From assembly GCF_037042905.1 (NCBI RefSeq), contig NC_087251.1:24740001-24804000 (forward strand): a DNA stretch of 64,000 nt, written 5' to 3'. This DNA is from Lytechinus pictus. Lineage: Eukaryota. A program made the position numbers and the translations under genes. Within the stretch, counting starts at the first letter, position 1, and each line of letters starts with the position of its first letter. Positions 1,102 to 31,400 of this stretch are shown in pieces. The notes below the pieces were generated by a model that saw only the letters and a program-made list of their open reading frames with translations, did not search any database and was not told where the DNA came from.

Positions 1102-1561
1102 CTGTCATTATCCGAATATATGTTGTAAAAAATACCTTAAAATATTTTTGATAATACATCTGGAACAAAATTTAGATACAAAATAATGATTTTTAATGAT
1201 AATAGAATATTGAAAATAGAATTTACTACATATGTATTTTCATTAATGATTAAAAATACACAAAAAACTCATTATTTGCGAAAAAATTGGCAAAAAATAA
1301 TGATGTCACAGGATATCAGGCAGGAGCGATGCGATGTTGTTAGCTGTTCGCATACAAAAATCATTCCGATCATTCTTGCTAGCTTAGACTCCGAGAGAAG
1401 CATTTACTTACACTTTTATATTGTATGTAATTTGTGTTTCAGGGTTCGATTTCCTATAATGTGAATCAAGGACTTATCGACTGAGTAACTGAGAGCATTT
1501 ATGACATATTAATTTTCATTCAGCTGCATGCAACTTGCAACGGCTACGCTACGGTGCATCG

Positions 1562-2731
1562 ATGATGGCGACCAGCAACAGCAACATTTCGAGAGGTGAG
1601 TGAGTGTGCTGCTGCATGCTGTCTGCAGTCTGACGTGACTGAGCTGAGCTGCTTTGTTGTATTCTCCTGTATCCAGTTGTTGTGTACCCCTATCTGGAGT
1701 CTGGACAATCGCTTTCAAACAAAATTTGCACTCAAGTGTTTCTACAACTATAAAAGAACAGTGTTGTTAGGAAATATTTAGACTTTTTATAAAAAGGTTA
1801 CATAAGTCATAACTTCATAAGGCCGAAGCCAACCTGGCCTAAGGGCAAGGCTAAGCTTAGTCTTGAGGACGCAATGATGATGACTTTTAAAATCCTGTCA
1901 TATACTTCTTCATCATTGACGTCTTGAACAGGCCTTCATAGACATGCAAGAGAACGAAGTAAACAAAGATGGATTTCCTTAGGAAATCCATCTTTTCATA
2001 ACAGAATCGCGTGAAATACGTTTATTTTATTAATTTCCACTCATGGGATCAATGCATCTCGCGTGCGAAGGATTCATATGCACATGGTGCACGCGAATTT
2101 TTCACACCCTTTTTACTAAAATGACTATGCCATTGCTTTTAAAATAATGTTTCTAATTGTGCTATGACACTTACCGAACCATATGGATCGTTTCTCTTCT
2201 TCTCTTTGGTGTGTTTTTAAGAAAAAAAAAGCATTTTCTCGTGATCTTCACGTAGATACCGCAGGGTAATCGTGGTTGTAAACTTTTGCTTAAAGAGGGC
2301 GCGCGATGTTATTCACAAGATGTTTGTTTACGGTTCTGCAGCTTGTACTGCTAGCTGCATTTTAGACGCTCAGCATTATTTTCCTCTTTCTGTTTTTTTT
2401 TTTTGCTGTCAAGCGGTATTTTCTATTGTAGCGCCATCAGCGATGATGAAATGTAAAGAGTCGCCTTGAAATGAAGAAAAATTATGTCACATTAATTCGT
2501 TAGTTTGTTTCCTATTTTTTTGCACTTTTTTCTTCTTCATCTATGATCAAAGGTGAATACCTTTTTTTTATATCTGTTCTAAAAGCTGGACATTTTAAAT
2601 ATTTTGTTCAAGTAAATAAATCAACAGGATAGTAATCAAAATGCGATAGAGCTGCCCGAGCTGAAAATTCTGATACAAGGACTTGAAAATAAAACATTCT
2701 GAGCACTTTTTATAACCATGATGAGGAGACC

Positions 2732-2776
<45 letters not shown>

Positions 2777-5700
2777 ATGTATGTATATGAAATAAGCTAA
2801 CACGAAAAAAAGACGTTTTGGGGACTGTTAAATAAGAATTCATGAGTGGGATAGGTAACTATCTATTCTATCCTTGTTCGTTTTCTATTATTATTTGTGT
2901 GTTGTGTTTATTTTTCTTGAAGCACCAAAAGGTGGACATGTCCGCTAAGATATATTAACGAAGTCACCATTATTATCACAAGCTAACGGATCAAAATGCG
3001 AGCGTGAAACGTGAGCTTCTTTTTTTCTTAATTCAGTCTTAACGATACTTTTTCATCATATTTTAAAGGTGAATCTCATGATTCAAAGTGATAAATGCTT
3101 GTCGCACGGGCAGAAATAGCGGGACCAATAGTTATTTTCAATATTCCGAACTGCATTCTGGACGTTGTATAAGCGCCTTTGTATAACAATTAAAAGGGTA
3201 GGCCTATTTACCTTACAAATTATGCAAGCGCTTGGACATTTAAACCTCAACAAATGGACATTTTTAAAATATGAACAACATCATAAATGTCACTTACAAA
3301 AATGATGCCAGCGCGAAGCTCGCGCTTAGAGTTTTTGATATTGATGACAGGACTGTATCTAAATGAAAAATAATGCGAGGGCATTTGCGCTTAAGATTTA
3401 AATTTGGGATTTGAAAAGTCCGACAGATTACCTATACTTTTAAAAGAGGAATGACCTCCAGAATTCAAGCGCGAAGCGCCAGTAGATTTATGTTGAAGTT
3501 TAGACCTAGAACAGGGACGTTGAACCTTTATAATCATGAAAAAGATGGTATTTTTATAAATAAAACATGGGAGTCTAATTTTGTTTTAGTGTTAATATTC
3601 AGATCTTCAAACTTGACATTTTCCTATCCCCTTCATCATCCCCTCTCCTTCTCCCTTTCCCCATTTTCGTTCTCCCTTCTTTTCTTCTCTCCCTTTCCCT
3701 TCCCTTTTTCGCTTTTCCTTTCCCTTCTTTTATTTCCTTTCTCCCTCCCCTACTCTTTTCTCGCTCTTTCCATTTTTCTTTCCCTCTCCCTTCCCCTCTT
3801 CCTTTCTTTTGTTTTCTTTCTATTTTATGGTCTCCTTTTCCCTCTCTCTCCTTTACCTTTCCCCCTCCCCTGATCTGTCTTTCATTGTCTCTCCTTTCCT
3901 TTACCGCCCCCTCCATTCCCTTTCTCGCTTTTTCCTTTCCCTTCTTTTCTTTCCTTTCTCCCTCCCCTACGACTTGAATCGAGAATGTTCGATAGGAAAA
4001 TTTCGCATTCCGATTGTTGTTTGCGTAATTTCCACCGCAGTATGAGGATGACCAAGGACGGATCGAACGAAGTATCCTGGTTGAGATTTGGAGGTAAGCG
4101 ATAAAACACCTTAATAAATAATTTATAATTCCTTTTTCAAATAATACGATCAAGATTAACATAGTGGACAAATATTGAAAGGCTTGGCGTAGTTTAGTCC
4201 CTCACATTCGTGTGATGAATGAAAACGTCAAAATGCACTATGAAATCACATGTGTTGTGCGAGGTTAGTAATACTAACCTCGCATGTTGTGTGAGTGATT
4301 AATTTCTACACCTTCCTACGCCTAATGCTTAGGAAGGTTTTAAAAAATGTTAGATAAAAATGTAAAAAAATAAAGGTTTCTTACCTAACTAATGCCGCGT
4401 AGACCCCTCGATCCACATGTAAACAACAGAAATACAATAGCGTCGACCCTTGAACCGCTTATGTATGACGTACTTCCGGCTAGCAATGCCGTCTTGAGGA
4501 ACAATTTATAGATAAAAATTATCATTTCACAAATACTAAAATTTATGACGTAATTATAAATAATTTTTAGTATTATACTAATTATTTATAATTACGTAAT
4601 AAATTATAGTATTTGTGAAATAATAATTTTTATCTATAAATTGTTCTTCAAGACGGCATTGCTAGCCGGAAGTACGTCAAACATAAGCGGTTCAAGGGTC
4701 GACGCTATTGTATTTCCGTTGTTTACATGTGGATCGAGGGGTCTACGCGGCATCAGTTAGGTAAAAAACCTTTATTTTTTTACATTTTTATCTAACATTT
4801 TTTTAAACCTTCCTACGCATTAGGCGTAGGAAGGTGTAGAAATTAATAAAATAAACGTATTTCATGCGATTCTGTTATGAAAAGATGGATTTCCCTAGCA
4901 AATCCATCTTTGTTTACTTCGTACTCTTACATGTCTATGAAGGCCTGTTCAAGACGTCAATGATGAAGAAGTATATGACAGGATTTTAAAAGTCATCATC
5001 ATTGCGTCCTCAAGACTAGCCTAAGCTAAGCTAAGGTTCAGTTCTGGACGCAGGATCTTCTTCTGTTCCTCTATGTCTAGCTCCTGGTGATAAACAGTGA
5101 CGTCTGAAGAATTGGCGCGGTCCGGGGGAGGAACCTTATAATCAAATTTAAATTCTGCATTACGCAGAGATCAAATATTGATGACGATTTCAATTTTTCA
5201 TAGTTTTTGTTTTAGAGAAAGGCAGGATAGGCCTTAATATTAAGTGTCTGGACACCCGATCCCAATCCGGGGGGGGGGGGGGGGCACTCAAATTATATTT
5301 TGATGGGGGTGTGCCTCACAAAACCCTGAAATGGGGGTCTACCGGTAACTCTAATTAAGGAACTGACTACAAGTAAGGGTGAAGGGTCCTGGGAACTAAA
5401 AATATACCGGGTGGTGTGATAAACGGGGTCTCGAACGGTATCTCACGGTACACGATTGTAGCTCTAGCGCTGTGCATCTGGGTGCCAGCCATTCAAGCGC
5501 CATGGTATAGATAGAGGGAATAAGATGCTGTGCGCATGTGTGCAGCTATACCTTTGTGATGGACAATTTAGGCAGGGCTGGGGAACTGAGATGTTTTGAA
5601 ACATACCGGGGTCTTGTGAGAGGGCTGGACAGCTAATCTGAAAGGAAATTTTGTCATTTGGAGTATGAGGTCTGAAAAAGGGTGTCATCAAAGCGGCACA

Positions 5701-8700
5701 TCCCCTTACCACCAATGTATACGAGTGCCCGCCCACGGGCCCCCATCTTAGGCCTAGATCAAAAGCTTCAGTGTCTGTTTCGTCGGTTGTTCCGCTGGAC
5801 TATGTCTTGCCTCACTTGGAGATAAAAGCAAAAGAAACTGAAAAAGGTTTATTTAATAAACTCCTTCAATAAGTTCAAAGTTATGCGGATTGTTAGTTAT
5901 AAAAAGCTAGCAGGAACTGATCTAGCCGGATTATTGTGCAAAAAATATAGCCCCTAAAATAGTATGTGTCTAATCCGGCTGGATCCGCGCCTGGTTAGCT
6001 AGGCCCTAGTATGAAGGGGGGGCCCCATGACTGCGCACCTAAAAGTTAAGATTTAATTGTCGCGTTGTGGTCCCCTTGAGCCTCTAGAAAACAACCATGC
6101 CTCTTGGACTGGGCATGGGTGACACAGCATGTAAAGGAAGAATTCCCGGGGGTGGGGGGGGGGGGGGGGAGGGCAATCAACTAGACTATGGTATATTGCT
6201 GTGCACATGCATGACCACTGAAGTGAGACCAATAAAATTTTCATAGCAGTTAGATAATTAAATGAGCTTTGTTGTTTTGTATATTTTATTGAGAATGATA
6301 ATATTGTATTAGTTTTTTACACTATTAGATTCCGTAGTGACATCCTTGGGGCTACTCCTCCATATACCTAAACTGCCATTTTCTCAAAAATTTGAAAGTG
6401 GATTTGTTTCATACATGTACTCCCTTCTCTATAAAAAAGATGATCAAACTAGAAGTCAAAAAGAACCCCTCTGCTTGATGATGATAATGAAATATATTAA
6501 AGGAATTAACATCTTTTCTACATTGTCAACTTGTCTTTTCTCTACATTTAGTGTGTCTTATTCATGCGGAGAAGAAAATAAATGATTCCATCCGTGCTGT
6601 AATAAGCGGAGTAGAAGATGAGTTGAAATTGGAAGACCAAGTATCCTACAAACGTCGCTACAAAGAGAGTAAGTTGCAATCATACTACAAGAAGATGAAA
6701 TAAGAAGTACTTTATGCCTTACACTGCAGAGACTCTTTATGTTTTACCTGATACCATATGAGAAGTGCTATAAAAATCATCCCAAAAATTGCCAACTTAA
6801 CCTCACCAACAATTTATTTGATAGAGAATAAAAATCAGACAAGCCTAACACTTACCTAATACTTGATTGAAACTGGATACAAAATTAAATTTAAAAAATC
6901 ACGACTATGAAGTTTCATTAATTTTCACAAACTTTTATATGCATAATATGCATAACATACTAGGCAATGGATAACTTTACATTACATTTTGAATGTTAAT
7001 ATTTCATTTTTTTAATGTAAGGTAAAACTTTATTGACTTCTCATTGAGCTTGTTGAATCACCATTATTGTAAGTTTTGATTCAATCAAGAGTTAAATATT
7101 CATAGCAACTTGAAATAAGTTGTCTGTAAACAAGTTCATAAATTGTAGGTATTGATAAAATGTATGTACATTCAATTTTGCCACAGTATGCAGTTTCTTC
7201 ACTTTATGATAGTACATCATGTCTGAAAAAAAAACCATAAAACTTCTTGCAATGTCCTGCAACTATCCAAGTATTTAATGTGATAATCAGAGCTATAATT
7301 CAATTACTGTAGATATTTTCCAATTTATCATTAAATGTGTTGATTTTTCATTGTGCTTCATGTAGATGTTGGGCTTCTTGCAAAGTTTTTATCATTCAAA
7401 GCTATGGTAAAATTTAAATCATATTGATCTATCATTTTAACATTCCAATCTTACAAAATTACAGACCATAATTTTCCTTGTTTAAGAAATTTTGAATGTT
7501 GCAGTTAATCTAATAGTCTGTTCCTCAAGTTATCTTCAATTTTTTCTTACCAAAGACCCTACAAACATTTAGATTATCTAGCTACATAATATGTGCAGAT
7601 TATGATTTGTATACGTACCTGATTGTTTTCATAACATTCCATACTCGAGAAGTAAATTTATTTTTTTTAAAGAGAGCTAAATAAAAATAATAGTGATAAT
7701 GATGATAATAATGATAATAATAACAATAACAACAACAATAATAATCATGATATTGATGATAGTATATATACCCAGGGGAGCCACTTCAGTATACAAACGT
7801 ATAAAACATGTGACATGTTGATTTAAACTTTCACCATGATGTTTCAATAAATTTAATGCATAATGTGCTTTATAGTATTCTTTCATGTTATATGAAGATG
7901 AATCAACAATTTGAATGTATATACCAACATGTTATTCAGTGAAACACAATTTCTTTCTTTCATAAGGAGATAATGTTGCATCCGAGATTGTAGAGATGAT
8001 GAGAAAGCTTGATGATGATGATCTCCATTGTAAGGCAATCATTTTCCTATCATCACGTCTCTGTGAAGTCATGAAAAATAACAAAGACATTTCCACAGCA
8101 TTCCAAGGTAAGTGTTTGTAATTTATAATTTTTTTTAATGATCGTGGTATTACATGTATGCTCAGAAGCATATAAACATCAGTGGCGACCGCACAGAAGC
8201 GTTGTTAGCGTAACAGAACGCTAACATTAGGGCCAGTCACACCTTTCACGGATGACCACCGCCTAGACGCATTGTTTTCACTAAAAGTAGGCCTACCGGT
8301 ATCGATAAACTCACAGAAGCTTAGCCGAATTCCTAATAATCTAACAATAAAAGGCTTAGCAGAAGCTAACAGTGGCGCTAATGTTAATACAAATCACTAA
8401 CAGTGCCAAGGGCGCCAATAGTGACGATATTAGTGAATAATTTCTCTCTTTAAAACTTGTCTCCCTTTCTTATACCAAGTAATTTAAAATATACTTGACC
8501 GAATTAAAGGGGTATTCTGGGCCCAACAATATATGAATAAATTGAGTAAAATTAGATGAGCAAATCGCTGAAAATTTCAACAAAATCTGAAGAAAAAAAA
8601 ACAAAATTCTTGAATATTAAAAATTAAACTCTGTATTTTGCAACTGATATTACTGAGCAGCATGTGGCCATGAATATGCAATAAATGGAAAGATAATGCC

Positions 8701-11700
8701 ATATCCTCTAGCTCTTTCCCCTTTTTCTGATTTTATTGAAATGAACTCGTAATTGTCTCAAATGTGTGTATGTCGCCCGAGTAACAAAATTATGATCTTT
8801 GAAGCAATATTCTGTGTGGACAAAATTTAAATAAACCTAATTTTGAATGATACAACAGACCCTCATTGCATATTCCTGAAGACATGAATATAAATTTCAC
8901 CGAAATAGGGCCTAATGCAAAATTTTAAGATACCATAATTATTTGTATTCATTTCCAATTTTTATCAATTTGTCAGTGTTTTGTTTGTCTCACTTTACTG
9001 TTCAAACCGTATTATTTTCTTCAGCCTGGAGTACCCCTTTAGGAATAGGTATATAGCGGGGGATGTTGATTAGTGCCAAGATATATGATCCTTTTCAAAG
9101 ATTTTTTTCTTCCAAGATATATCATTTATTTAGGTGTTTGAAGACATTTTTATGAATAGACCCTACATTAGAAAGAAGAACAATAGTTGATGAAATTTAT
9201 CGCATGATAACCATCATTGGCAAATACTATATCATGAGCATGATGAGTGAAGTCTGTGAAGAGCATTTTCAAACAAAAGAAACTGATGAAAAGTGGGATC
9301 GCATTTTTTTTTGTACAGAATCTCCATCGTAATATCATGATAGGCTAATCTTTTTTATCTTTTTGAAGCTTATTCGATATTTTAAAAATTAAATTAGCAA
9401 ATATATATTTACTACCTGCTGCCATTTCATGTTTAAAATGTAATAATTCAATTTTGTAGGCCTATAATATGATAATGAATTACATTCCTTTACCCTTTCC
9501 TAGACAAAATTTTAAACTTGTAGGATGTGCAAATAATCATAACTAAATCCAAGTTAAATCTAGATCACTATGCACAAATTATAGATTTTGCAACAACTTT
9601 CTGTGCGGTAATTCTACCCATGTTGTTAGGAGCTGATTTGTTAATGGATAGTATACAGATTGTGATGTCAAGCGTTGATCTCAGATGTAAATAATGCATT
9701 ATAGCCATCGCGGCGAGATTACCGGTTGTAACAGGGTCCTTTGTTAGCGCGGTGTTAGTGAAATGTTACGCTAACAGCGTAAAGTACGGGGTCTTGGGAA
9801 CTAAATATTTTCCGAGCGGTGTGAAAAACGGGGTCTAGGTAACAGGATCGCGGTAGGTACGGTGCACGCTAGCGCTGTGCATGCGCCAGCCTTGCATGGA
9901 GCGGCTACTAGTTATATGGAGGGAGTTGAGAAGCCGTGCGTACATTTCTTGCATGTAGCGCCCGCGCTTGTTAATTTTGGCAGGGCTGGGGAACTGAGAT
10001 GTCTCGTAATGGGGGCCTTGTGAACGGGGCTGGACGGCTGCTGAACTGAACTTTTGTCATTCTGAGTATCTAGAGAACTGAAAACTAGGTCTGAAAAAGG
10101 AGGGTCATCAAAGCGGCACGTCCCCGTACCACCAATATATGTGAGTGCCCCCCCCCCCCTCGGGAGCTAGTTACTACCAGCAGGCTTAAATTTCTGTAGA
10201 GGGCAATTTACATGTACTGTTTATATGTGCTCCTAACTGGTCTTGGGTTGCTTTCAAACTTGTTTGAGATCAGTTTCCTTAAAATGATCTCAGGTAAGTT
10301 TTATACTCTTATATCAGCATTTTTGCCTCTGAGAACAAGTTCAGTTCTAAAATAATTGTCAAACACTTGGCATTATGTTCATACAGGTTGTCAAGCTTCC
10401 ACAGGTTTTATTGATGTACATGTATACATTATAGCTCTTACCGGTATTTCCTGTCATGAAGCACAAGATCAGAGGTCAATCTTTGACATGGGTTCTTAAA
10501 ATGCTTTCATGGTATACTATACATGTATATTTTACCATGTGTGTATGCAATAATTGCAAAAGATGATTAAGAAATTATTTACATTGAATTCACATTTTGG
10601 AAACATTAATATGTCTGTATCAATTTAATAATAAATGACTTGCTAAATCTGAGAAGAGCTGTGGTTTCAGAACGTTTTCATACAGTTGGAAATGGATGGG
10701 ATTAATGGCCTTATGGTGGGTTCCGGAAGTGTAGAGGAAGTTAACAATACAGGAAATAATTTTGCTTTAAAATTTAAATAGCATTTTTGGTCATAAGAGA
10801 AAAGCTCTCAACTAAGTAATGTACAGACTCCTATTTAAAAAAATATACAAAAGACTTTATGCATAGCAGTCTTTCAAAAATGTGGAGCAAATTGCGATGC
10901 GATACCAGGAAATTATTCCCTGCAATAATTTTCTGATACTCTACTTTACATGAATTTTTGAAGATATTCTGCAATTTCTTTGCCAGAAGTTTTTTTTTTT
11001 TTCAAAGTGGAAAAATCACATGTATTACTAGATGGGGAGGGATCAGTCATTTTGGGCTTCAATATGGTAGGGTTTAGTTCATGAACAGTAATATTAAGGA
11101 TATAGCCTCTATACCTGGTGGGTCTTTCATGAAAGTTGTCAGCACTGACTAAATTGTTAGTGCTGACAATTTCAGTGAAATCCTTGTTTTGACTGGCTGA
11201 AAGGCACTGGCTCTGACTGTTGCTATAGTAACTGTCAGAGAAAGACAACTTGTCACTGCTGACAACTTTCATGAAACAGTCCCTGGATATCCATCTGATG
11301 GCTATTTATCTGGGTATAGAGGTTTTTATTTAATGTGGTTTTTTTTCATGAACCTACCTCTTCACTATACCTGGGACCCGTTGCATAAAACTTTTGTCAT
11401 TTTTAATGTGTAATTTTCAATGGCATTATTTTTTGTTTGCCAGAGTTTTTGTTTATTCGCCAGAGCATTTTTATAGAAAATTTGTATGCAACGGGTCCCA
11501 GATAAGCCTAAAATGACAAATCTCCCATCTGGTTTATTACAAATATTTGAAATTAGAATGAGATTTCATTTAAGTTAGACTGTGGTGTAATATACATGTT
11601 GTATATTGGCTGTTATTACTCAAGCATTTCTTTTTGCTTCTAATTGTAGTTTGCCATTGAATTTTTTTCATTACTTTATCTTATGCTTATTTATTGAATT

Positions 11701-14700
11701 TATGTCTAAATTTTGTTATTGCTCCCCTGCTCTGATTTGTCGGTCACATTGAAATGTACTGTAATGCAGCGCGCGACACTGGCACTGGTCCGACAGTCCC
11801 AGACCAGTAAAAATTGCTGTCGGGCCAGTAACTTTTCAGAAATAGCCAGATATACTGGTCCGACATGACCAGTAAAAAAACATATCAAACTAATATAAAT
11901 GATATATTCTTTAGTAAATAATAAAATGGCTTTGGCACCTTAAAAAATGGTTTTCCAAAATTGATAAATGGTTCTCATGAATAATTTTGCGTGTGTGTAT
12001 GTGTTTACCGTTTATTAGTTGTTGTTTTTTTTTTTTTTTTTGGGGGGCGATAAAGCAATAAAAGACAGCAAAAAAACATGATTTCCTTTATTTTGGGGGA
12101 CCAGTAAATTTTGGTTCGGACCAGTAAAAAATTGAAAAACTGGGTATCTACTGCAATTCTACTGGTCCAACATGAATAGGTTGGACCAGTAGAAAAAAAA
12201 GGTTTAGTGTGGAGCCCTTTTTAATGTCATACTACAAATATGTTTATGTATTTTAGATTTATTTTGACTTTACCATAAATGCAGAAGCTATGCAAAAATA
12301 CATGCAGTTTTAAATTATTTATGAAACATCCTATTCCTTCTGCATCATGTTGTGAAACCAGCCTAAACTGTTTTATTAAATTTAATGGCAATGTTACCTG
12401 GCATTCCTTATCAAAACATGATGACTAATTATCTGACAGTGATCTGTGATTTCATACTTTCATGAAATAAATCGGTGACAATGTCTAAGTTGGTGGCCTG
12501 TTCATGTACAGTACATGTATTCTGAGAAATCAAAGAAAGTGGGGATTTCCACATTCATTGTGAGCTTTCCTCACCAAACTACTTTACATACATGTACATG
12601 TACATGTAGTAACTATTTAGCTACAATTACCATGGGATGGCATGATATGGTTGAGAAACTTGCAAGCTTGTGATTATGTTCATCGCTATAAAATGACTGC
12701 AGAATGTCAAAACGGGATAGCTTGAGTAGCGTTTCCATTGTACTTGAACAGCTTCGTTGAATAGATTCTTAATAGCCTGAAATAGAGTAGAGGTAGGTGA
12801 TTAAAATGATCTTCTAAAATAACAAATATGTATTGATTAAATTTGCAAGGGGTGTGAAATGAACATCTCTCTACCATTAGGGTGATTCTTCTAATGCCAT
12901 TTTTCACAGATTTTTTTTTCAATTTCATTTTCTTAAAATCAGCTTTTTTTTAAAGCAAAGCAGAGTATGATTGTGATATTTAGTCTTGATAAAGTGGATA
13001 TTATTGTGTGACTCTTTGAAATTCAAGAGGTTTCAAGATGAATGCTTAAAAGTTATGCTACACATGAATCTTATTAAAGCATGTACACATACATGTAAGC
13101 TTTATTATTTAATTCATGATTTTGTTTGCATGTCATCTGACAGAGCCGAGTGTCCCTGACCTGTATACTGAACTTGGGTTTCATTAAACTCTGGTGAAGA
13201 GTTGTAGATAGCCAATTGCGACACAAATCTCTAAGACACCGTTCTCACTACCTTCCTAAAACCAGTGTACTGGAAACTAGTTTAGTGAAAATTAGTTTAA
13301 CGTGTAGTGAGAACGGTCAAAGCGATCTTCCAAACCGGTTCAGAAAACCACCTTACGATGTAGGTTTCAAGATCGCTTTGACTCGTTAAACTGGTTTTAG
13401 CGTAAGTGTGGACACAACCGTTCTTCAGGAAGCAATCTTCGCACATTTTGAACGCGCTACTCCACACGACAGGTGTGGAATGCCTACGCTGTGGTTTCGA
13501 ATTTCGCGCGAAACGTGTGACCCCACTGAGAGCGTTTCCATAGCAACAAGATCGCTTTATGTGAAGTGATTTTGAAAACCACTTTAGTGTGGTCAACTGG
13601 GAACGCTAGCAAAGTGATCTTCCAAACTGGTTTCCAGTAAACTAGTTTTAGAAAGCGTAATGAGAATGGCCTCTTACTTTACAGGTTAAGTTTATAAGCT
13701 CATTTGACGCTCAAATATTTTTGTGAATAAAAACCATAGCAAAATATTTCCTTCACCATCCATGATAACATGACGATAAGGTACTGTAAACATATGAAAG
13801 ATACAATTTAAACAACATTTTTGACATTTTCTGTTTCCCATAATTTTAGTTAAATAGTATTCAGGATATGGTATAATGGTGGACCTCTGAGTCAGTACCC
13901 TAAAATATGAATTCATTGTCAAAGTGGTAATTCACTCAATTTGTCATAATCATAATGTACTTCCTTTCAGATCTAGTATTGAAAGACCAAGTCACACCGG
14001 GAAACGATCGTCGTTTGGCACTGTTATGGGACAAAGATTTGACCATATCAGATGCGATTTTCCAAGAAGCTTTCACCATGGCATTTGTAAATCACTTCAA
14101 ATTCAACACTTGTGGAGTAAAGTGCAGAGCAGATCCAAATGACATGAAGTTACCAAGTTTTGTGAATGCTATTGTAAAACAGTGGAAAGGTGAGCTTGTC
14201 ATGGACACTACTGTTATAATGCTTTAATATCCTCAAACTTCTCACAAATAAGTTCTACAATGCCAAAGTGATTTACACTCAGAACTCTAATATTGAACTA
14301 TGACATAACTGTAAATAAGCCTGTAGACAGAAAAGTTATGATTAATGTACTCCAATCTCATAATTTTTTTCTTCATCTTAAACACTTTCTATCAATTAAT
14401 TTATCATCCTATTCTGATATATAAAACCAGCTCCAGTGGATGTACAGTCAGAAGTTTCTTCATCAGGAGTCCCTATGAATGAGGATACTACACTTGATAT
14501 AGATTCAGGTGAGGAAAACAATGGAAAAGGTTCCCTTTTTCAACATACAATAACAAAATTTGTTTAGCAAAACAATGTTGCAGATTAGTGTTCCAGTGCT
14601 CATCAAGTAACTATGCTAGGGACAATAGTAAATGGTATTTGTAGAGTATGCTCCCACAACAATGACATGGTTTGAAGCTCCTATGTTCATTCCTGTGAAA

Positions 14701-17700
14701 TTACATGTTGCTGAAAAATATCAAATTTTAATTTTTTATAAACTTGAAGAACTTTAAATTGTAAAAAGTGAGAAAGTTTGCATGCCTTAAAATTGACTGG
14801 ACTGTTTAAAGTATGAAAGTGTCAAGATAGGTTAGTGTGTCAAATGACAGATGAGTAATATGAGCAGTGCCTAGTCATATGCCACAAATGGAATTAGACA
14901 AAATTATGTATCACAAATTATCCAAAAATTACCCTTGTGATTTTGAACAGGATTAAATGACCAGAAATGTAATAATAATTCTATTTATTAATTGATTCCC
15001 AGTTCATATTGTCCATGGAGGCGACAAGGCAGCCAAGCAAGCAGTAAGAGAAATCAGTAGAGAACTTGAAGATGGATTTCAATTAATGGATCCTACTAAA
15101 TATAAACTCTACAATAGAATCCAAGGTAGGTATCTAAACTTCTATTTTAGGACACTCTTCTCCCCTACTTCGGTAGTCATATCTTAATTCATTTACATCT
15201 CCCATAGGATGTTAAAGAAATATATTTTCATGAACTTTGTGTAGACATGATGAGAATGGATATAATTCATCAGTATTTGGCCCAAAATTAAAGATTTTTG
15301 GGGTTTGCATAACTTTATTATGTTAATATCCAATCACCAATGTGTGGACTGAAACCCTATCCAATAAAAGCACTGATATTGCTTTGCACTTATCTTATTA
15401 CACGATCTTCCAAAAAAAAATGTACCTACCAATTATGGCAAATGTAAAATCGAGTGTACTTGGAATAAATTTGTCTTTCTGTACATTAAATTAACAGTTC
15501 AGTGATTATATTATCCGAATGAAGACCAATAAAAATGAAATTTTAGTGAAGCATGATGATTTACAGTGAAAGAGTTGTTCGTTCAGATCGTACTCTCCCC
15601 GCCCCAGTCCCAACCCACCCCCCTCCCCTCACTGGTTACACCTTCTTATACATTTAACTATCACAATTTGTCTTTCTATCACAAAGACCATCAGATTCCC
15701 GAGGTAGTGATGTCTGAAGTAAAGAGTATCATTGATAACGACGGTCCTAATACACTTGGGGTTGTTACTTGGTGCCAGAGGCTTCTTGATATCTTGCTAC
15801 CATACAAATTTAGAGATAAATTTGAAGGTAAATAATAACACATTTGTTATGGCACAAAAGGGGAATTAATGTTTTTTTTTTACTTTATGATATCTCTTTT
15901 ATTGTCTTTTTCTCCTTTGTTGTCCATTCAAAACTTGAAAATATTGTACTGAATTGTACATGTAGCTCAACTGTGATAGTTTAGTATTAGATATAGACAA
16001 TGTAAAATCAAAGGCTTTGCAGAAGTTATGTGGTGAATGACACACATCTGTGCACTTGAATATTTAGAGTATTCTCTACAATGTTTTTTTCTTAAATTGA
16101 ATAATATAAAAAATTATTGTTTTATTTTCATTGCAAGTAAGCATTATATGCCAATCCTGGTGGGTGTTTCATAAAGCTGTTCGTAAGTTAAGAGCAACTT
16201 TAAGAGCGACTGGTGATCCTTTCTTATGGTAATTGGCAATGGTTTAGCGCGTAAGAAAGGATCACCAGTCGTTCTTAAAGTCGCTCTTAACTTACAAATA
16301 GCTTTATAAAACAGCCCCCAGGTATTTTGCTGACACAATGATACATATACAGATAGTAACAGTAATGATGACAACCTGATAATGTTGATGATCATCATGT
16401 CAACATTATTACAGTGAAAGAGGAAATATAAAAAGAAATGGATAGTAATAGATAATATCTATAATAATTTGATGTGTTTTATTTGTCAGCGTTGATTGTA
16501 GCCACCTCTCAGAAGAGAGTGGTCCACATGTGTCTGGGAGTAAATCGTCATGTGATTGGGAGGCATTTCCCTAAACTGGTTAATCTGGCATTCATTTCTC
16601 TTGAGCGACTTGATGATGGCACCATTGATACAACAGATCTCATCAACCGAGTTAAGCTTGCATTGGGTAAGAGTAAAGTACCATTTCCATGGTTCATTTC
16701 ATAGAGGTGCTGTAGCTTAGTGGATAAGTCACCGGACTTTGAACCCCGAGGTTCCGGGTTTGAATCTCAAAGCAGCCCTCGCGTCCTTTGGCAAGGCATT
16801 TATCTATATTTGCCACTCTCCACCAAGGTGTAGTAAATGGTTACCTGGTTGGAAGATATTCCTTGAATGCTCGAGAGCCCGATAGGTGTAGCCATGTTAA
16901 AGCCGGGGTAATAGTACTGGGATGCAGCGCTTAGAAACATTGTATGAAGCGCTATATAAATATTTTATATTATTATTATTCTTATTTCATGGAATACAAC
17001 TAAATGACTTGAAGTTTCACTATAATTCCTTTATATCAAATTGGGGTATATAACACATATCCACATTGACCATAGCAGTCATTAAATAAGTCTCAAGATA
17101 TTTTCTCTGAAATAACTCCAAGATAATACTAAGCCTGTCATGATGGTAACAAATGGGTCAGAGAATATGTGTATAGTCAAATGATTTGGTCATTTTCATG
17201 TGGAAAATTGATATGAAGTTATTAAAAAAAAAAACCTGAGTTATTCTTAGGCCAGTGCATGGCACTCTAATAAAGTCTAAATACCGGTAAGCACACTTAT
17301 TTAAGTATGTACTTGTAAGTTCTCTTAAACATGACAATGTGGATATAGTACATGATCAGTGAGGGACATATCTTTACATTTTTCACTGCCCTGGATGCCT
17401 AGGGTATGATGATTATGACAACGGAAGAATATTCTCACAAGAATAGTCTTGGAGATACATATCTATAAATTTGAATTGGGTTGAGAAATAGAAGTTTCGT
17501 TTTGATTTTGATCATTCATACAAAAATTTGATTTTTTTACATCCCAGATCAATGCAATGGAAATCTGTCAAGAGAAGAACTAGCTTTTTCCAGTACAGAA
17601 GCCAACCCACCTTCAGCTGGACAATATTCTCGGGCCAGTAACCAGCATGCCATGGATGAACGTAAGATGAGTGAACCCAGTTATCTCTCGTCTCAAGACG

Positions 17701-20353
17701 GCAAGGCACCTACCCAGATGAGGACCAGTCCTGTACATGGTCTAAGCTCTTCCATGGGATTGGTAGGAAACCCTAGTAACCAGAACCAGCAAGGAGGAAG
17801 AGTAGTCCCATCTGCCTGTTCGTCACACAGCAAGGATTCTGCAGGTTATGCTTCAGGTGGGAATCCCAACCCTGGCAATGGTAAACCAGTCCATGCACAA
17901 CCCTCAAGTGGGGGCAGTTCAGGGAACCAGGGCTCGAAGTATGTTGGTGTCAACGGAGGTTCCTGGAATTGCAATGCTCTGCCTGCAGGGTCTTTGGATC
18001 CATCCCAGAGCAAAATGATGATGCAGATGGGAGTCGTTAATCATCAAAGCAGGCCACCACTTACTCCATCTCAGATAGACATCAACCAGGAGGGTCAGCA
18101 AGCTTCGGGACAGTTGCCTTTATCGAGAGACGGTTCATCAGGAGTCTATCATCAAGCTACACCTTCAGAATCATCCTCAGATACTGCCAAGTATCTTGCC
18201 AATGGAGACTCAATGCCTCTCACTTCCATCCATTCCATGCCGTTTGGATCCAAGGAACCTGTGCTGCCACAGAGTGATGCAACCGTAGAATGTCCATCAG
18301 GTTTTAAAGACATGGACCCTAACAGCAACAACAGTCAGTTCCCTAATAATCTATGTGCTCCCTCTAGGAATGGCCAGTACTTGGCAGCAGAGATAGCTCC
18401 AAATATTCGCCCTGCCCCACATGACGACCGTATACAGAGACCTACTGGAAATAAGATCCCCAGAAGAGACAACACAGGAGACATCTCCATGTCTTCTCCT
18501 GAAGCCAGTGCTTCTCCTCACCAAGAATACCCCAGTGGAATCCCTCCTTCAACAGGTTCCGTTGCCTCATATGGAGGTGGCTTTGCATCCTTACAAATGA
18601 TCCCCAATCAGAGCATCATCAGGGACGGACCTGCATCTCTTCCTACAACAACGTCCCTCAACATGCCCGGTCCTGTGTCAAGGCAAGGTAATGCATCATG
18701 TTCTTCAGTAGAGGTTCCATTTGTTCAAGTTGCAGAAGACAACCCACATGATTGTCAATCTCTGAATGGACTCCCCTATGCTACCAATATGAACAGCAAA
18801 GATGCTTTTGAACAAGAGGATTACCAAGGTGAGCACACAATTTTTTTTTGTAATGAAATACTTCTAAAATCCAAGGGAGCATTTGACGAAGGGACTTTTC
18901 GGACGACATATTATCCAACAAGTGTTATTTTATCCGAGTCACCATGGTAACGGTGCTTTACAGTCAATCAAATTCGAGGAAAGTTGTCAGATCTTACAAC
19001 TTATCAGATGAAAAATGTTGATGAAGTGCTCCCCATGAATCTCTCAGAGTATGGCATGTGTATTATTATTAAGAATCAAAATCTATTTCATCAACTGCAT
19101 GGATTTTTTTTTTTTTTTGGGGGGGGGGTGAGGAGGTCATAATTGATTAAACTTTATGTTAACAACTGCACTTATTTTCCCATCAACCCCCCTTTTTTTT
19201 ACAGAGGGTTCTGGTCAGAAATTACCCAACAATGTGATTGGGGCTGAATTCAGATCTCTTCCTCCAACAAGTGCAGGCCGGAGAGTGAGAAATGAGGGTG
19301 CTGTAAATGGTAAGATTCCTCACTATTACCTGTGATTCTGGGGTGTCATTGAAGAATGGAATACAATGTATAGAAAATGTAATTTATTGTCTTTGATCAG
19401 AAAGATAAAGAAGAATAGTGGCAGGAGTGACAGACAGTAATCCTGTGTTTGATAGACTATTGGTGTTCTTCATCATCAGGATGTGACATGCTAGTCTATG
19501 GCATATTGTGTACAAAATGTACAATTATTGTAAATACTGATGGTAAACATTGATTGTATCTTTCTTATTACAGGCTATTTAAAGTTTTACAAGGGCTTTT
19601 GAAAAATCCACTTCCAACTTCAGGAAAATCTATATTTTTAAGACACAAAGGGAGTGATTGATAAAAAATGTGCATAACAACTTCTTTGAGTAATTGATGA
19701 TTTTCTGTCTCTTATTTGGTGTGATACTAATATCATTTTCATGGATTTAAAATAAGACTACCTTAGCTGATATTGAATAAGGATTTTTCAGTCTTTCTGA
19801 ATTAAAGTAATTGAATTTTTAATCCCAAAGTCAATGATGAAATCAAGATGGAGGCTGCAGGATGAAATTTAGTTTTATATCTTATTGCTGATTGCCCCAA
19901 AAGAGATGAAAGTACCTTTTTTTGATGAATGTCTTTAAATGACCTTTGACCTTGCCTCCTTGCATTTCCACAGATGATGAAAGGGTGCATACCTCTCCAG
20001 GTAGGATCAATCATAACCAAGGTTTCCCTATGGAAAACAGCTTTCCTGAGGAGCCTACCAATCCTCCAGATTTCCCTATCAAGGACATGGACTACCGATG
20101 CAGAGAGATGCTGAAGATCATGTTAGATCCTGAGACCAATACGGGCAGTGACTGGAAGGTCTTCGCGTACTTCTTCAAGATGAAGTTTGAGGAAGTTAGG
20201 TACGTCGATTCCCTTCAAAAGAGCTCAACACTCTATCTGTTTAACTGGTTGCATGAGAAGCGACCTGAAATAACCTGCGGGGATTTCAAGAATTGTGCGC
20301 AGATTCATCAACGATTGGATGTCGTCAGAAGGATGAACAAATTCCACTATTGA
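1562..20353 (+). CDS. Multi-exon gene (about 931 aa): tandem TIR-like (BCAP/BANK1-type) domains, disordered linker and C-terminal death domain; candidate innate-immune adaptor
   Basis: Exons 1562-1595, 6552-6668, 7967-8107, 13971-14189, 14431-14508, 15003-15125, 15687-15827, 16490-16666, 17548-18828, 19205-19309 and 19974-20353. All have AG/GT boundaries, all introns are phase 1, and they join into one stop-free 2796-nt frame (MMATSNSNISRVCLIHAEKK...QRLDVVRRMNKFHY*). ORF-track pieces 13955, 15566, 16474, 17652 and 19946 fall in this frame. The first exon is the least certain. Confidence 0.85.
1858..5018. mobile_element. Non-autonomous DNA transposon with about 180-bp TIRs (Mutator-like)
   Basis: 1858-2037 is the reverse complement of about 4839-5018; flanks GGCTAAGCT / GCCTAAGCT form an 8/9 match to a 9-bp TSD; no transposase ORF seen. 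Confidence 0.75.
4298..4847. repeat. Near-perfect 550-bp palindrome (fold-back)
   Basis: Arms of about 275 bp mirror each other around TTAGTAT-T-ATACTAA at about 4574. Confidence 0.9.
5267..5739. mobile_element. Non-autonomous DNA element with GGGGGCACTC...GAGTGCCC ends; partial second copy at about 9785-10165
   Basis: Terminal inverted repeats, plus clear similarity between 5383-5730 and 9789-10150. Confidence 0.6.
8508..9038. mobile_element. TTAA-flanked MITE (Kolobok-like), degenerate
   Basis: TTAA-AGGGGTATTC ... GAGTACCCCT-TTAG. Confidence 0.55.
11114..11502. mobile_element. Two short fold-back MITEs (11114-11287, 11371-11501); similar small MITEs at 16157-16322, 18875-19034, 22374-22718, 26999-27175, 42284-42559, 47854-48070
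   Basis: Each has GG...CC terminal inverted repeats of 15-30 bp, e.g. CTGGGACCCGTTGCATA / TATGCAACGGGTCCCAG and GGGGTGTTGCAAGAAA / TTTCTTGCAACACCCC. Confidence 0.6.
13235..13673. mobile_element. PIF/Harbinger-like MITE
   Basis: About 50-bp imperfect TIRs (GACACCGTTCTCA... / ...TGAGAATGGCCTC) between TAA and TTA. Confidence 0.6.
15003..16666 (+). other. TIR-like domain 2 (three exons)
   Basis: VHIVHGG (betaA), LGVVTWCQRLL (betaC), QKRVVHMCLGV...HFP (recalling BCAP/PIK3AP1 RVVRLLCGV...FFP). Same three-exon layout as domain 1. Confidence 0.65.
16704..16980 (+). mobile_element. tRNA-derived SINE (degenerate)
   Basis: A-box-like TAGCTTAGTGG, B-box-like GGTTTGAATC, body related to the copies at 21992 and 23948, and a (TAT)n tail. 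Confidence 0.7.
20075..20353 (+). other. Death domain, MyD88-DD-like
   Basis: LKIMLDP...DWKVFAYFFKMKFEEVRYV...STLYLFNWL...ITCGDF...QRLDVV matches the death-fold pattern L-x-x-x-L-D/N-P...DWxxLA...T-x-x-L-L-x-x-W...R-x-D-V. Confidence 0.85.
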
Positions 20354-21991
20354 TCAGTAGCTATTTGACATTAGTTTGATGAGTCCATGTTGGATGTAGC
20401 ACAGGAGCAATAAGATGAAAGTGGTCAGTATTCTCTTGTCATTGCTTAAAAAGAATCTTTTGCTGTGGGAAAGACAAAAACAGTCATGAGTTTTGAAGTT
20501 ATTTTCTCTTTAATTGAGGAAATATTTTATAAGTAAGGATTGCTTCTCAGGTGCCTGCACACTCGAGCTATGATGATTAGCTGAAATGTTGGGCTGAATG
20601 TGTGTCTTTGGTTCTATTCATACTCTCTGTGTGCATTACAGGTGACTTCTATTAGAGAGTCAATATCTTTTGGCGTTGGTGATTCCCTAATCTTTCATCA
20701 TTCACCTATATTTCAAAGCATAGCAATCATTCATTGTATTTTCCAATTTTACTTTGAGGCAGTTTCTTTCATATTACAATCTCTTGACCAGATCTGAAAT
20801 TTGTCTGTAATTTATCTTGGACAACACTTTCATGGATTACTTGTTATCTACTCATTCATTTTGTACAGATCATATTCGATCCTGCAGGAACAAAACTGTC
20901 CTCAATGAATTCTTTGCTTACAGTATTAATGTCATAAATATAAAAAAAGTGTGCACACAGAGTACTTGAATGAATTATTAATTTACACTCTTCTAAAGAG
21001 ACTGTTCACACCAATCATTCATGATTACTATAATACTTATTATGCAATCATTCTGTGTATGATTTGATACAGTTTGGAGAAAGAGTAGCCCAGATGAAAT
21101 TCAGTGTGCATTGGCCCATAAGCATATTACCCAGTGGGTTAGTGATTGATAGGAGTCCGAGTTTCATATTTACGTGTTCATTTTTAAAATTTTTTTATTG
21201 CTATTGTGTGAATCCTTGGATGCCTTAAAATTATTGTTAATATAAGAAGGAAACATTCACGGCATTGACTTCATAAATACAACATTGTTCCTTGATTTCC
21301 AAACCGGTGTGTCACTATATATGTGTTGATCAGGGCTATTTTAGTCCTTGGTTCAACCATTCATGAGAAACTAGAATTTGACTGTGGAATTTAGTACCTT
21401 TGACCTTTTAATAGTAAATGTACATAAATAAAGATTATAATAAAAAGGTTTGAAGAAAAAAAAAAAAAAAGACAAAAAATATTGATAATAATGTAGAAAT
21501 GAAATACATTTTAGTACTAAATAATGTGTACATATTGTAGTTTCTTCACATGCAATTCATATATACATATTTGTCCCCCTAGCCGGTAGCAAAGACCACA
21601 GTACCTATCAGAATACAAATTGAAATGTGACCTTGAGAAAAAAATACAACATTTATGACAAGGAGTACAAACTGAAGTCTGCGTTGGTTTAACCCTCTCT
21701 GTTAAATAATTGCAAAGTGATTTTTCTGACTAGATTTCACGGAGATTACATGTATGTGTGGTTTACCTCAATTTTTCTAAAGTTCCAGAGTTTTTATTTA
21801 TAGGCAGACTCTGCTGCTGTATAATGCTTTCAGCTCAAAGCGTTGAATACACATTTTCATTTTGAGGATGCAGTTTTGGATGATATGCAGCTATGCATGA
21901 AATGGTATGAATTTTGCACTCATGGTTGCCTGTAAGAGCAATGTAAACTAAAAAGTAACCGACACTCTTCAGTGTATCTCTCTATCTTGGT

Positions 21992-28462: not shown

Positions 28463-31400
28463 TCAGCCTGATTTCAATTGTGATATTCTATCGAGCAGTT
28501 CTTGTAGTTTGGACTCTAATCCCTCAACAGGTTGACTTAGCTCGGCCCATGACGGTGGTGGAATCGTTTCATCATAATGCTCTTTCTGAAAATAAAACAA
28601 GAAAAGTCATACATAAAGAGGAATTTCCTAGAACAGGGATTACATCCCCCTGATGATCTTTGTCAGAAGCTTATTCAAACTCCCCTTTACTAGCCAGTGG
28701 AAGAGCCTACTTGGTTGAGTAACTCCTTAATTTGTTTATGAATAGACCAAACCTGACTGCTAGAGTAGGCAACCCCTCACTGTGTTTGATAGCTATTGTG
28801 TGTGTGCACTGCATAGGGCAATGCAAGCAAATGCTCAGCAGACTGCAGATAAGCAAGCATAGGGTGCAGCAGCACCTTTCAGCAGCTCCTTGGCTGGGAA
28901 AGCCAGCACTTTGGTGCCACGCCTTTGATATTTGGAGTGGCATGTAAGCCAGCAGTGGTTGGTTCACTGGTTGGAATTCAAGGTCCAGACTACGGCCGTT
29001 TTTCTCCATGGTTTATCCACGTCTTTTGACGTTCCGTGTCTCCATGTATCGCCAAAGTTCTCCTCGTTTAGCTACGTCCTACGTCTAGTGACGTTCACGG
29101 CCTCTTCGACGTCTTACGACGTTCTACGATTGCTACGTTATCCACGGGAAAGTCCCGAGATCTAGGTTATCCGGTTTCTTCTAGTTTGGCAAGTTCATCG
29201 CATTCGTGAGTTCATCTTCATATCGTCTTCCGTTCGGCACTGCTCATCCATTTGCGTCTGACACCGGGTGATGAGTGAAGACTTGAGAAACTGAACTTTC
29301 CCCATAATATAAAGTCGGTATATGTATAGTATATACATTGTTTTCATAAACACACACAGAGTTTATGCTCTTTCCTTTGAATAGGAATAGCAGGTCACAA
29401 TACTTAGTTTATTTACATTATACTAATTTGAATTGAGACAGATTGTTCCAAAACTTATTGATACTGGTTTATTGAACTTTATGTTTTGACAGCTTGTGAG
29501 CCTCGATAATGGCAATATTGATATATATAATAAACTCATTTTGATTGAAAGGTACAATTTTATCTTATAGTTTAATTCTTGGGTGGTCAAACAACCTGTT
29601 TAGACTAATAAGTCAAGTTCACATCAAACCCAATGTGACAATTTGGGGGCTTGTCCGAGAAGTTTAGGCCATAACATACCCTGTTGGTTGAATTAATTGG
29701 TATAGGATTTGATTGTTAGATTTGTATAATGTACTGATGAAGATAATCTAGGATTTTCTGTTTGTTTTATTGGTCAACAAACATAAGATTTAATTGGTCG
29801 ATGACATGACCCCTCGCAAAATTTGTGATATGTACTTATGAAAAATTTTCTGTTCAATTTTCAGAATTTAGCCGAAATCCTTCAAGTTCTTTGTGTCAGT
29901 GGGCCAAGGACCATCCAGTGCACCAACACTCCTGCTAGCGACGAGCATGCGCAGCAAGGTCAAGTGCGAGTAAAGGTTTATTTTGGATTGTCGGTGAGTT
30001 GCAAAATTGAATATGTATGAAAATTGTGCCACACAAGTTATCAAACACCCCTATAAGAAATAGTTGATATAGTATATAGTTACTCAATAGTTTTTTGACT
30101 TAGGTAGTGGTAGTTTAAACCTTTAAACATGAGTACTAAGTGGTTTGAGATTGGCAAGGAATTAGGTCTGTCAGGGCCTGAGCTTCTTTCATTTGTAGGA
30201 GAAAGGGAACAATTAGAGCAAGAGGAACGTAGGGCTAATAGAGAAGTTAGGAAAGAGGAAGAAAAAATTCTGGAGATGAAACTTGAATTGGCTCGTGTTC
30301 AAAGCCAGAGTAGGTCTGATAGTATGATTGATAATGGTAATGGAAACGGTCGCAGTTTGGTACCAACCCCGAAACTCCCTCATTTTGTTGAAGGAAAAGA
30401 TAATATGGACGCATATCTCAAAAGGTTTGAGAAGTATGCGAAAGTTCAGTCATGGCCAAGAAGTAGTTGGGCCATTAGTTTAAGTGCACTCTTGCAGGGT
30501 AAGGCACTCGATGTGTATTCAAGACTTCCAGCAGATAAAGCTGAAGATTATGATGCCCTCAAGGAAGCATTGTTGTTAAGGTTTGAACTTACTTGTGACG
30601 ATTTTCGTCAAAAGTTCAGGTATTCCAATCCACAGTCTGGGGAGACCCCCACTCAATTTGTTGTTAGGTTAGAACATTATTTGAGTCGTTGGATTGATCT
30701 GTCAGGTACGCAACGTACATTCGATGGTGTAGTAGAAATGTTGCTCAAGCAACAACTGGTTGAGAGAGGTGGAACCTCTCTAGGTCTTTTTCTGAAGGAA
30801 AGGAAACCTAAGAATATTTCAGAGATGACTAGTCTAGCAGACACATATGTAGAGGCCCATAGTGGTCACTTTGGAATTACCAGGAAAAATAAGAACGATA
30901 ACAAGGGAAAGCCACAAGGTAGTAGGTACCCTCAGTCAGACAGTGAAGCTAAAACAAGTTCGGGGAACTTAAGAAATTCACTTCCTGAACGGAAAAGAAT
31001 TGGTCCGTGTTTCATCTGTAACAAGATGGGGCATTTAGCAGCTAAATGTAACACTAAATTACAAGGTGCAAGTCTAATTTGTAGTACTGATCATTCAAAA
31101 AGTAGTAGCCAAAATCAGAAAAGAGAATCAACTCAGTATGAAACAAATAGTAAAGTGTCAGTTGATAGTAGGTCAGATTCTTGTGCAACTTGTTCGCTTG
31201 TTAGTCCAGATATGGAAGGAAGTGAGACACTTGGACTTTTGTTAATGTCTTTAGTTAGTGAGAAAGATAAGTCAGAGATAGTTAATAGAGATACCTTACA
31301 AAAATCACCGATGATGTGTGCTGCATGTCAGCGTCGTTGGCGTGGTAAGTTGACTGTGGTTGAAGGTAGGATTGGATCACACAAGGTTGATGTTCTTTAT

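Follow-up and report, generated by a model that had tools for sequence, protein, structure and literature searches.

A candidate innate-immune adaptor of sea urchins with two divergent TIR-like domains and a C-terminal death domain

We analysed a window of 64,000 nucleotides from the sea urchin Lytechinus pictus (GCF_037042905.1, contig NC_087251.1, positions 24,740,001 to 24,804,000), in which the gene LOC129265360 lies on the + strand. We found that this gene encodes a protein in which two divergent, predicted TIR-fold domains are followed by a long, presumably disordered linker and a death domain of the MyD88/Pelle type. Eleven joined exons give a 2796-nt frame of 931 amino acids (aa) with a single terminal stop, and all 10 introns are GT..AG and fall in phase 1. 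We propose, giving the idea roughly even weight, that the protein is an innate-immune adaptor that has not been described before. Sea urchins have innate-immune receptor repertoires that are among the largest known, and few recognised adaptors. Published surveys, in the portions of the papers available to us, count adaptors by TIR domains that are detectable with hidden Markov models (HMMs) (PMC2575513, PMC5457136), and surveys of this kind cannot see the LOC129265360 protein. If correct, the proposal would add a signalling node to the ambulacrarian Toll/IL-1/IL-17 network; should the N-terminal domains turn out not to be TIRs, LOC129265360 would still encode an uncharacterised death-domain scaffold.

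An AlphaFold2 model of the N-terminus, built from an 8-sequence alignment, had a mean predicted local distance difference test score (pLDDT) of 79. It contained two alpha/beta domains, which span residues 13-176 and 200-351 of the 937-aa NCBI form of the protein and are joined by a low-confidence loop. In the numbering of the 931-aa form these borders become 7-170 and 194-345, in agreement with the 11-170 and 197-345 proposed in an earlier note that had been made from the DNA letters. When the model was searched with Foldseek, the list of matches was crowded by large two-lobed proteins; the small single-domain chains in it (target 128-163) were all TIRs (TcpB/BtpA, PdTIR), with a probability of 1.00 and a template modelling (TM) score on the target of 0.52-0.64. 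We also ran VIA-align, as a wide search of 48,161 PDB representatives and, in a second run, on the best 1000 chains from Foldseek, with 50 rows listed for each. In the wide search TIRs occupied ranks 1-3. PdTIR matched domain 1 with Z 10.2 and a root-mean-square deviation (rmsd) of 3.3 over 135/136 residues, AbTir matched domain 2 with Z 9.9, and PDB 5for, the PIK3AP1/BCAP "Cryptic TIR", matched domain 2 with Z 9.5, rmsd 3.7 and 16% identity over 129/134 residues. About 11 of the 50 listed rows were TIR/SEFIR-family proteins (for Cat1, the aligned domain was not determined). In the second run ranks 1-11 of the 50 listed were all TIRs (Z 11.0-8.0), and the first non-TIR appeared at rank 12 (Z 8.0). 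Here TcpB/BtpA matched domain 2 with Z 11.0 (rmsd 3.3-3.5, 126-129 aligned), PdTIR and BtTir each reached Z 10.9 and AbTir 10.3, and the single-domain rows for domain 1 were TIRs in 6/6 cases. The best structural matches are bacterial TIR proteins (Z 10.3-11.0), at identities of 9-13%. In the predicted model, both domains have a flavodoxin-like alpha/beta fold that is closest to solved TIRs, with other flavodoxin-like folds within ~2 Z. The earlier note had allowed that the repeats might not model as a TIR fold at all; with AlphaFold and Foldseek/VIA, TIRs came out as the best matches.

We compared the sequences of the two domains with TIR and SEFIR domains by HHalign. Against 30 Toll-like receptor (TLR) TIRs from the same genome, domain 1 gave a probability of 44% (P 2.4e-4), with strand A, the BB-loop region and strand C in register. 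In this alignment a V-x-[LI]-[IV]-H motif in strand A fell on box 1 of the TLR TIRs and a Y-K-R/K-Y-K-L-Y stretch on their box 2 region, with strand C on strand C. Domain 2 against nine echinoderm BCAP TIR_3 sequences gave a probability of 11% (P 0.0029) over strands C-D, a weak, in-register match that includes a shared G-V-(E/N)-R stretch. Comparisons with the two IL-17R SEFIRs of the L. pictus genome gave P 0.004 (domain 1, out of register) and 0.066, and reversed-sequence controls gave P 0.13-0.85 in 6/6 comparisons. An earlier HHalign run with 4 sequences per domain had reached probabilities of 1-2% against the TLR TIRs; these rose with 8- and 5-sequence alignments and were still below threshold.

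A number of observations weigh against a TIR identity, and some of them would fit an alternative in which the N-terminal domains are some other flavodoxin-like module (vWA-, receiver- or B12-binding-like) without homology to TIRs, and the protein is a death-domain scaffold in apoptosis, NF-kB processing or another pathway. The N-terminal fold is a prediction from eight aligned sequences, and the wide search also returned vWA (Z 9.1), B12-binding (8.9) and receiver domains (8.0-8.4), all within ~1-2 Z of the best TIR. Pfam assigned 0 families to the N-terminus in 3/3 full proteins at E up to 10, and none when single exons were searched; genome scans with TIR (PF01582), TIR_3 (PF18567) and SEFIR (PF08357) miss LOC129265360. 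A PDB sequence search with an N-terminal profile returned a chance-level peroxiredoxin match only (E 0.38), the ESM Atlas gave no usable match for the N-terminal domains, and the profile-profile scores described above stay below significance even at their best. The family alignments show the canonical TIR motifs (boxes 1, 2 and 3 and the BB-loop proline) in part at most: K-Q-W ends domain 1 where the F-W of box 3 would lie, and a P-G pair is not conserved. Nor is an acidic residue conserved at the place of the catalytic Glu of NADase TIRs. On the other hand, TIRs hold the top ranks in both VIA runs, the TIR targets are nearly fully covered, a TIR is the best match for each domain independently, and the sole sequence signal above the controls is to TIRs and in the right register. 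We consider it quite probable, given the predicted structures, that the N-terminal domains are very divergent TIR-fold domains truly homologous to TIRs, and think the non-TIR alternative unlikely. The two-TIR assignment of the earlier note holds up as far as the predicted fold is concerned, in that both halves model as flavodoxin-like domains with TIRs, BCAP included, as best matches; it finds no counterpart in TIR HMM matches or in HHalign scores above threshold. Because no acidic residue is conserved at the catalytic place, a scaffold is likelier than an enzymatic role, which, judged from the family alignments, seems unlikely for these domains. In this respect they differ from TcpB/BtpA, PdTIR, BtTir and AbTir, their closest structural matches.

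Homology between the two N-terminal halves, suggested in the earlier note, is borne out. HHalign aligned half 1 with half 2 at a probability of 94% (E 1.2e-7), and BLASTP pairs between the halves reached down to 1.3e-9. The introns of the two repeats also correspond: codons 18/203 and 104/291 coincide exactly and 57/244 lie within one residue, all in phase 1. Equivalent intron codons in the same phase indicate a tandem duplication of a three-exon module. The exons form a symmetrical 1-1 set, a pattern associated with the duplication and shuffling of exons, and the phase-1 introns together with the duplicated module would make this gene a clean case of adaptor assembly by that route.

The C-terminal domain is a genuine death domain, divergent but recognisable at the profile level. 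Exon 11 alone scored 13.0 bits in Pfam PF00531 and did not reach the cut-off of 22.6, which counts against the assignment; orthologue death domains scored 13.1 and 18.2 bits, and the Diadema orthologue has a precomputed PF00531 match. When we searched the PDB with a six-sequence profile, we obtained FADD (E 6.9e-4), RIPK1 (9e-4), ankyrin-2 (0.003) and MyD88 (0.005), and all of the best 20 matches were death-domain proteins. MyD88 was the only PDB match of a 4-sequence full-length profile. The predicted structure of the domain has six helices (pLDDT 87.3, predicted TM score 0.79), and its top Foldseek match was MyD88 (TM 0.72-0.75, 21-22% identity). With VIA the first match was 1d2z_A, from the Pelle-Tube complex of the Drosophila Toll pathway (Z 12.9, rmsd 2.2, 92 aligned), and MyD88 (Z 12.7 and 12.2, 21% identity), ankyrin-G (11.4) and FADD (9.9) were also found; ranks 1-14 were all death domains (Z 12.9-9.0). 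These results substantiate the terminal death domain of the earlier note. In the model the domain appears nearest to the Toll-pathway type, by about one Z unit. Pelle is a kinase, however, and Tube carries repeats, and neither has a TIR-like domain. A complex prediction with four death-domain copies, run without an alignment and without controls, scored 0.00 and is evidence neither way. Of 30 Pfam-Death exons in the L. pictus genome, an HMM of the family death domain finds 16 at E < 0.01. Six-frame scans of this genome gave at least 108 Death matches at E <= 0.01, 33 TIR matches and one TIR_3 (BCAP) locus.

Between these parts lies a linker of 495 residues (351-845 of the 937-aa form), close to the ~500 aa that the earlier note had described as rich in S, P, G, Q and N; the computed composition is S 14.7%, P 10.7%, G 9.7%, N 8.3%, A 6.9% and Q 6.7%. 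The linker has no Pfam match. Short islands in it, such as G-N-P-x-N-Q-N, Q-R-P and S-E-P, are invariant in four echinoids. When the linker was scanned for TRAF6, TRAF2 and RHIM-like motifs, no site proved to be conserved across all six family proteins. A TRAF2-like S-x-[QE]-E occurs at one aligned spot in 3/4 echinoids (L. pictus has S-S-Q-D there), and a RHIM-like V-Q-V-A in 2/6 family proteins; we draw no claim from either. The sequence R-E-P...P-x-E-S-L-D-P-T is common to the starfish (351-362) and acorn worm (201-212) relatives, directly after the last TIR-like domain. Its P-x-E-S-L-D fits the TRAF6-type P-x-E-x-x-acidic pattern, from which we again draw no claim, and the echinoid sequences aligned to it read S-E-P-x-x-L-x-S-[QE]-[ED]-G. 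We found no transmembrane segment, in keeping with the earlier note: the highest 19-residue Kyte-Doolittle mean across the protein is 0.89.

We searched for relatives with residues 18-350 of the protein. This word-seeded search yielded four echinoid proteins among 2577 candidates, namely those of L. pictus, S. purpuratus (LOC756105), an unnamed Logan transcript and Diadema antillarum. When we ran HMMER exhaustively on 1.84 billion representatives, using a 4-sequence profile of the N-terminus, 9 proteins passed E <= 0.001. Besides the echinoids and four short fragments, these were from the starfish Patiria miniata and the acorn worm Ptychodera flava; no significant relative was found in this search outside Ambulacraria. 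The P. miniata protein (834 aa) has two N-domains, a linker and a death domain, so that the architecture with two TIR-like domains and a death domain is kept in 4 echinoids and a starfish, while the P. flava protein (524 aa) has one N-domain, a linker and a death domain. Both echinoderms and hemichordates, where the earlier note had thought orthologues might be sought, therefore contain relatives, and the family, as found by these searches, appears confined to the sea urchins, starfish and acorn worm of Ambulacraria. Within L. pictus the gene is single-copy, since 10/10 genome matches of the protein are its own exons and there is no paralogue. Our literature searches found no paper that names LOC129265360 by its locus or protein identifiers and none with both "N-terminal TIR" and "C-terminal death domain", and broader searches gave nothing relevant.

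We propose that the LOC129265360 protein would act as a cytosolic scaffold without an enzymatic domain. Through its TIR-like domains it would bind to the cytoplasmic TIR-type tails of activated receptors, or to other TIR adaptors, either by docking or by co-oligomerising. This would bring the death domains into a cluster, to which IRAK/Pelle-like kinases or MyD88 would be recruited, forming an assembly like the Myddosome. Additional factors may bind to conserved motifs of the linker. The earlier note had likewise spoken of an adaptor. The architecture on which it relied is supported in silico, including the reversed MyD88 order and the absence of a transmembrane segment, whereas function and partners are matters of proposal in both accounts.

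A known protein of comparable make-up is MyD88 (death domain, intermediate segment, TIR), which is likewise cytosolic and non-enzymatic and combines a TIR-fold module with a death domain. In LOC129265360, by contrast, the parts come in reverse order, the single TIR is replaced by two TIR-like domains that no Pfam TIR model detects, and the long disordered linker stands where MyD88 has a short intermediate segment. The reversed order and the non-canonical TIR-like domains rule out an orthologue of MyD88. Invertebrates are well known for shuffling TIR and death domains, according to the portion of PMC2575513 available to us. BCAP/PIK3AP1 and BANK1 (TIR_3) resemble it in having an N-terminal TIR that ordinary TIR models miss. 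However, BCAP has no death domain, and the LOC129265360 family has neither a DBB domain (PF14545) nor ankyrin repeats (Pfam, 3/3 proteins). Membership of the BCAP/BANK1/Dof group can be ruled out, as both PF18567 and PF14545 are missing in 3/3 proteins and the true L. pictus BCAP orthologue, which has both, lies on another chromosome (contig C18). Given the position of that orthologue and the reversal of the MyD88 order, the protein is not the orthologue of a characterised adaptor, a possibility that the earlier note had set against its own proposal.

An alternative that keeps the same architecture is that the protein damps signalling. As a decoy, it would sequester or reroute TIR receptors or adaptors and death-domain partners, without activating NF-kB. 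There is precedent in vertebrates, in which BCAP, SARM and short MyD88 forms damp or redirect signalling, BCAP being a negative regulator of TLR signalling. The BCAP cryptic TIR is also the closest animal TIR by structure, at the Z of 9.5 and 16% identity given above, and the N-terminal domains are strongly diverged from signalling TIRs. However, by structure the death domain most resembles the activating Pelle/MyD88 type, and no sequence feature separates activation from inhibition. We regard a damping role as unlikely, and continue to prefer the activating adaptor.

A further alternative is that the protein is an IL-17 receptor adaptor that replaces the missing Act1/CIKS, with its TIR/SEFIR-superfamily domains binding SEFIR tails and its death domain recruiting IRAK/Pelle. 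In the portions of the sources available to us, an Act1 homologue is reported absent from every echinoderm genome, yet IL-17 signalling works (Buckley et al., PMC5457136), and CIKS is again reported absent from echinoderms in PMC11087794. The latter, to the same extent, describes ancestral CIKS as a death domain, a long middle region and a SEFIR domain, single-copy in most species, with a death domain that binds Pelle and IRAK4 and is related to those of MyD88 and IRAK (PMC11087794). LOC129265360 has the same three kinds of part, that is, TIR/SEFIR-superfamily domains, a long middle region and a MyD88/IRAK-related death domain, in the opposite order, and is single-copy like CIKS. Only two SEFIR loci were above the cut-off in the L. 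pictus genome, an observation that fits the published two IL-17 receptors and the lack of Act1 in sea urchins. On the other hand, the domains look TIR-like rather than SEFIR-like: the model is nearer to TIR (Z 11.0) than to a prokaryotic SEFIR (Z 8.2), and Pfam found neither a SEFIR HMM match nor a U-box. The family also occurs in the hemichordate P. flava, which belongs to a group in which Act1 is stated to be readily detectable, in the available part of PMC5457136. With no SEFIR found by HMM, the protein is unlikely to be Act1/CIKS itself. We find the IL-17 adaptor role as a whole more doubtful still than a damping role, and with it the idea that the LOC129265360 family functions in the IL-17 signalling of echinoderms as ancestral CIKS would, with its parts permuted. 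The protein nevertheless offers a concrete candidate for the question, already in print, of how echinoderm IL-17 receptors signal without Act1.

LOC129265360 is a real, expressed gene. We mapped two contig sets and two raw stranded RNA-seq runs (X19 and X20), all with the same species label, onto positions 1400-20500 of the window. All 10 junctions, including 1595>6552, were each shown by one contig in X1, at depth 41, and the listed pieces of a 4365-nt X1 record match exons 1, 2, 3, 9 and 11 with 0 mismatches. Raw reads supported 10/10 junctions in X20 and 9/10 in X19, with 3-13 reads each; 14508>15003 had no reads in X19. Junction 1595>6552 was found in contigs of both X1 and X15 and in 4 (X19) and 3 (X20) raw reads. 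The first mate of all junction reads lies on the - strand, which in a stranded library means that the RNA came from the + strand. Because one contig carries all of the junctions and raw reads cover every one of them, a single transcript joins the 5' exons to the death-domain exon; they do not come from separate genes, as the earlier note had considered possible. With the same architecture annotated or assembled in 5 other species as well, an annotation artefact that joins exons of different genes has next to no probability, and a fusion of two genes is ruled out.

The eleven exons, all on the + strand, follow the domain plan closely. Exon 1 of the 931-aa form (1562..1595) encodes MMATSNSNISR plus 1 nt and ends at a GTGAGT donor in phase 1; the transcript that contains it reaches upstream of 1400. 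Exon 2 (6552..6668) supplies strand A, helix A and strand B of TIR-like domain 1, exon 3 (7967..8107) its middle, and exon 4 (13971..14189) its end, with the invariant KQW. Exon 5 (14431..14508), which RNA junctions support, encodes the inter-domain linker of low confidence (pLDDT <50 at residues 178-196). TIR-like domain 2 starts in exon 6 (15003..15125; VHIVHGG...), continues through exon 7 (15687..15827), which has an invariant WC, and ends in exon 8 (16490..16666). For exons 2-4 and 6-8 the assignments draw on the model and on RNA junctions. Exon 9 (17548..18828) encodes 427 aa of S/P/G/N-rich, presumably disordered linker with the short conserved islands, and exon 10 (19205..19309), with RNA junctions, the linker end. 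Exon 11 (19974..20353) completes the linker and carries the death domain (~20045-20350) as well as the stop codon, and the 3' untranslated region extends past 20500. The single 931-aa frame over 11 exons that the earlier note had assembled is thus confirmed by the rejoined frame, its GT-AG phase-1 introns and the RNA junctions.

NCBI annotates the gene as "uncharacterized protein LOC129265360", with an isoform X1 of 937 aa; a search with the last open frame of the gene gave 3 hits among 28 candidates, and this frame is 100% identical to the C-terminus of that isoform. The earlier note had expected the TIR-like halves to be easy for annotation to miss; the gene was not missed, and it is the N-terminal domains alone that go unrecognised. 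The 931-aa form equals NCBI isoform X1 from residue 12 onward, and the first exon alone differs. When we mapped the 937-aa protein onto the window, we obtained a single solution with 11 coding exons, in which an alternative first coding exon at 4042..4093 (+) rebuilds the NCBI protein exactly. Its junction at 4093 is absent among the 15 joints listed of 87 in the RNA and contig mapping. A 268-nt inverted repeat (4298-4847; 14-nt loop, 96% complementary) lies just downstream of this exon, and 191-nt inverted arms (95%) at 1850-2040 / 4836-5026 bracket it, and the exon may sit within a foldback or transposon-like element.

Two intronic regions had high coverage in the RNA mapping. At 5222-6495, in intron 1, the raw RNA runs had a depth on both strands above that of the exons, with many loose ends in G/C homopolymers at 5267-5284 and 6148-6173. 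At 16051-16687, in the region of intron 7, the summed depth in the contig runs was in the thousands. Both look like dispersed repeats rather than parts of the gene.

Rfam had no match in the window. Downstream of LOC129265360, positions 30114-33944 (+) hold an uninterrupted 1277-aa open frame with an integrase zinc-binding domain and core, a reverse-transcriptase fragment, a Tf2-type SH3 and a SCAN-like (gag-type) domain. This is an insertion resembling a long-terminal-repeat retroelement and is unrelated to the gene. Two open frames with tetratricopeptide repeats at 42299-43579 (-), also unrelated to LOC129265360, probably belong to the exons of an adjacent, oppositely oriented gene.

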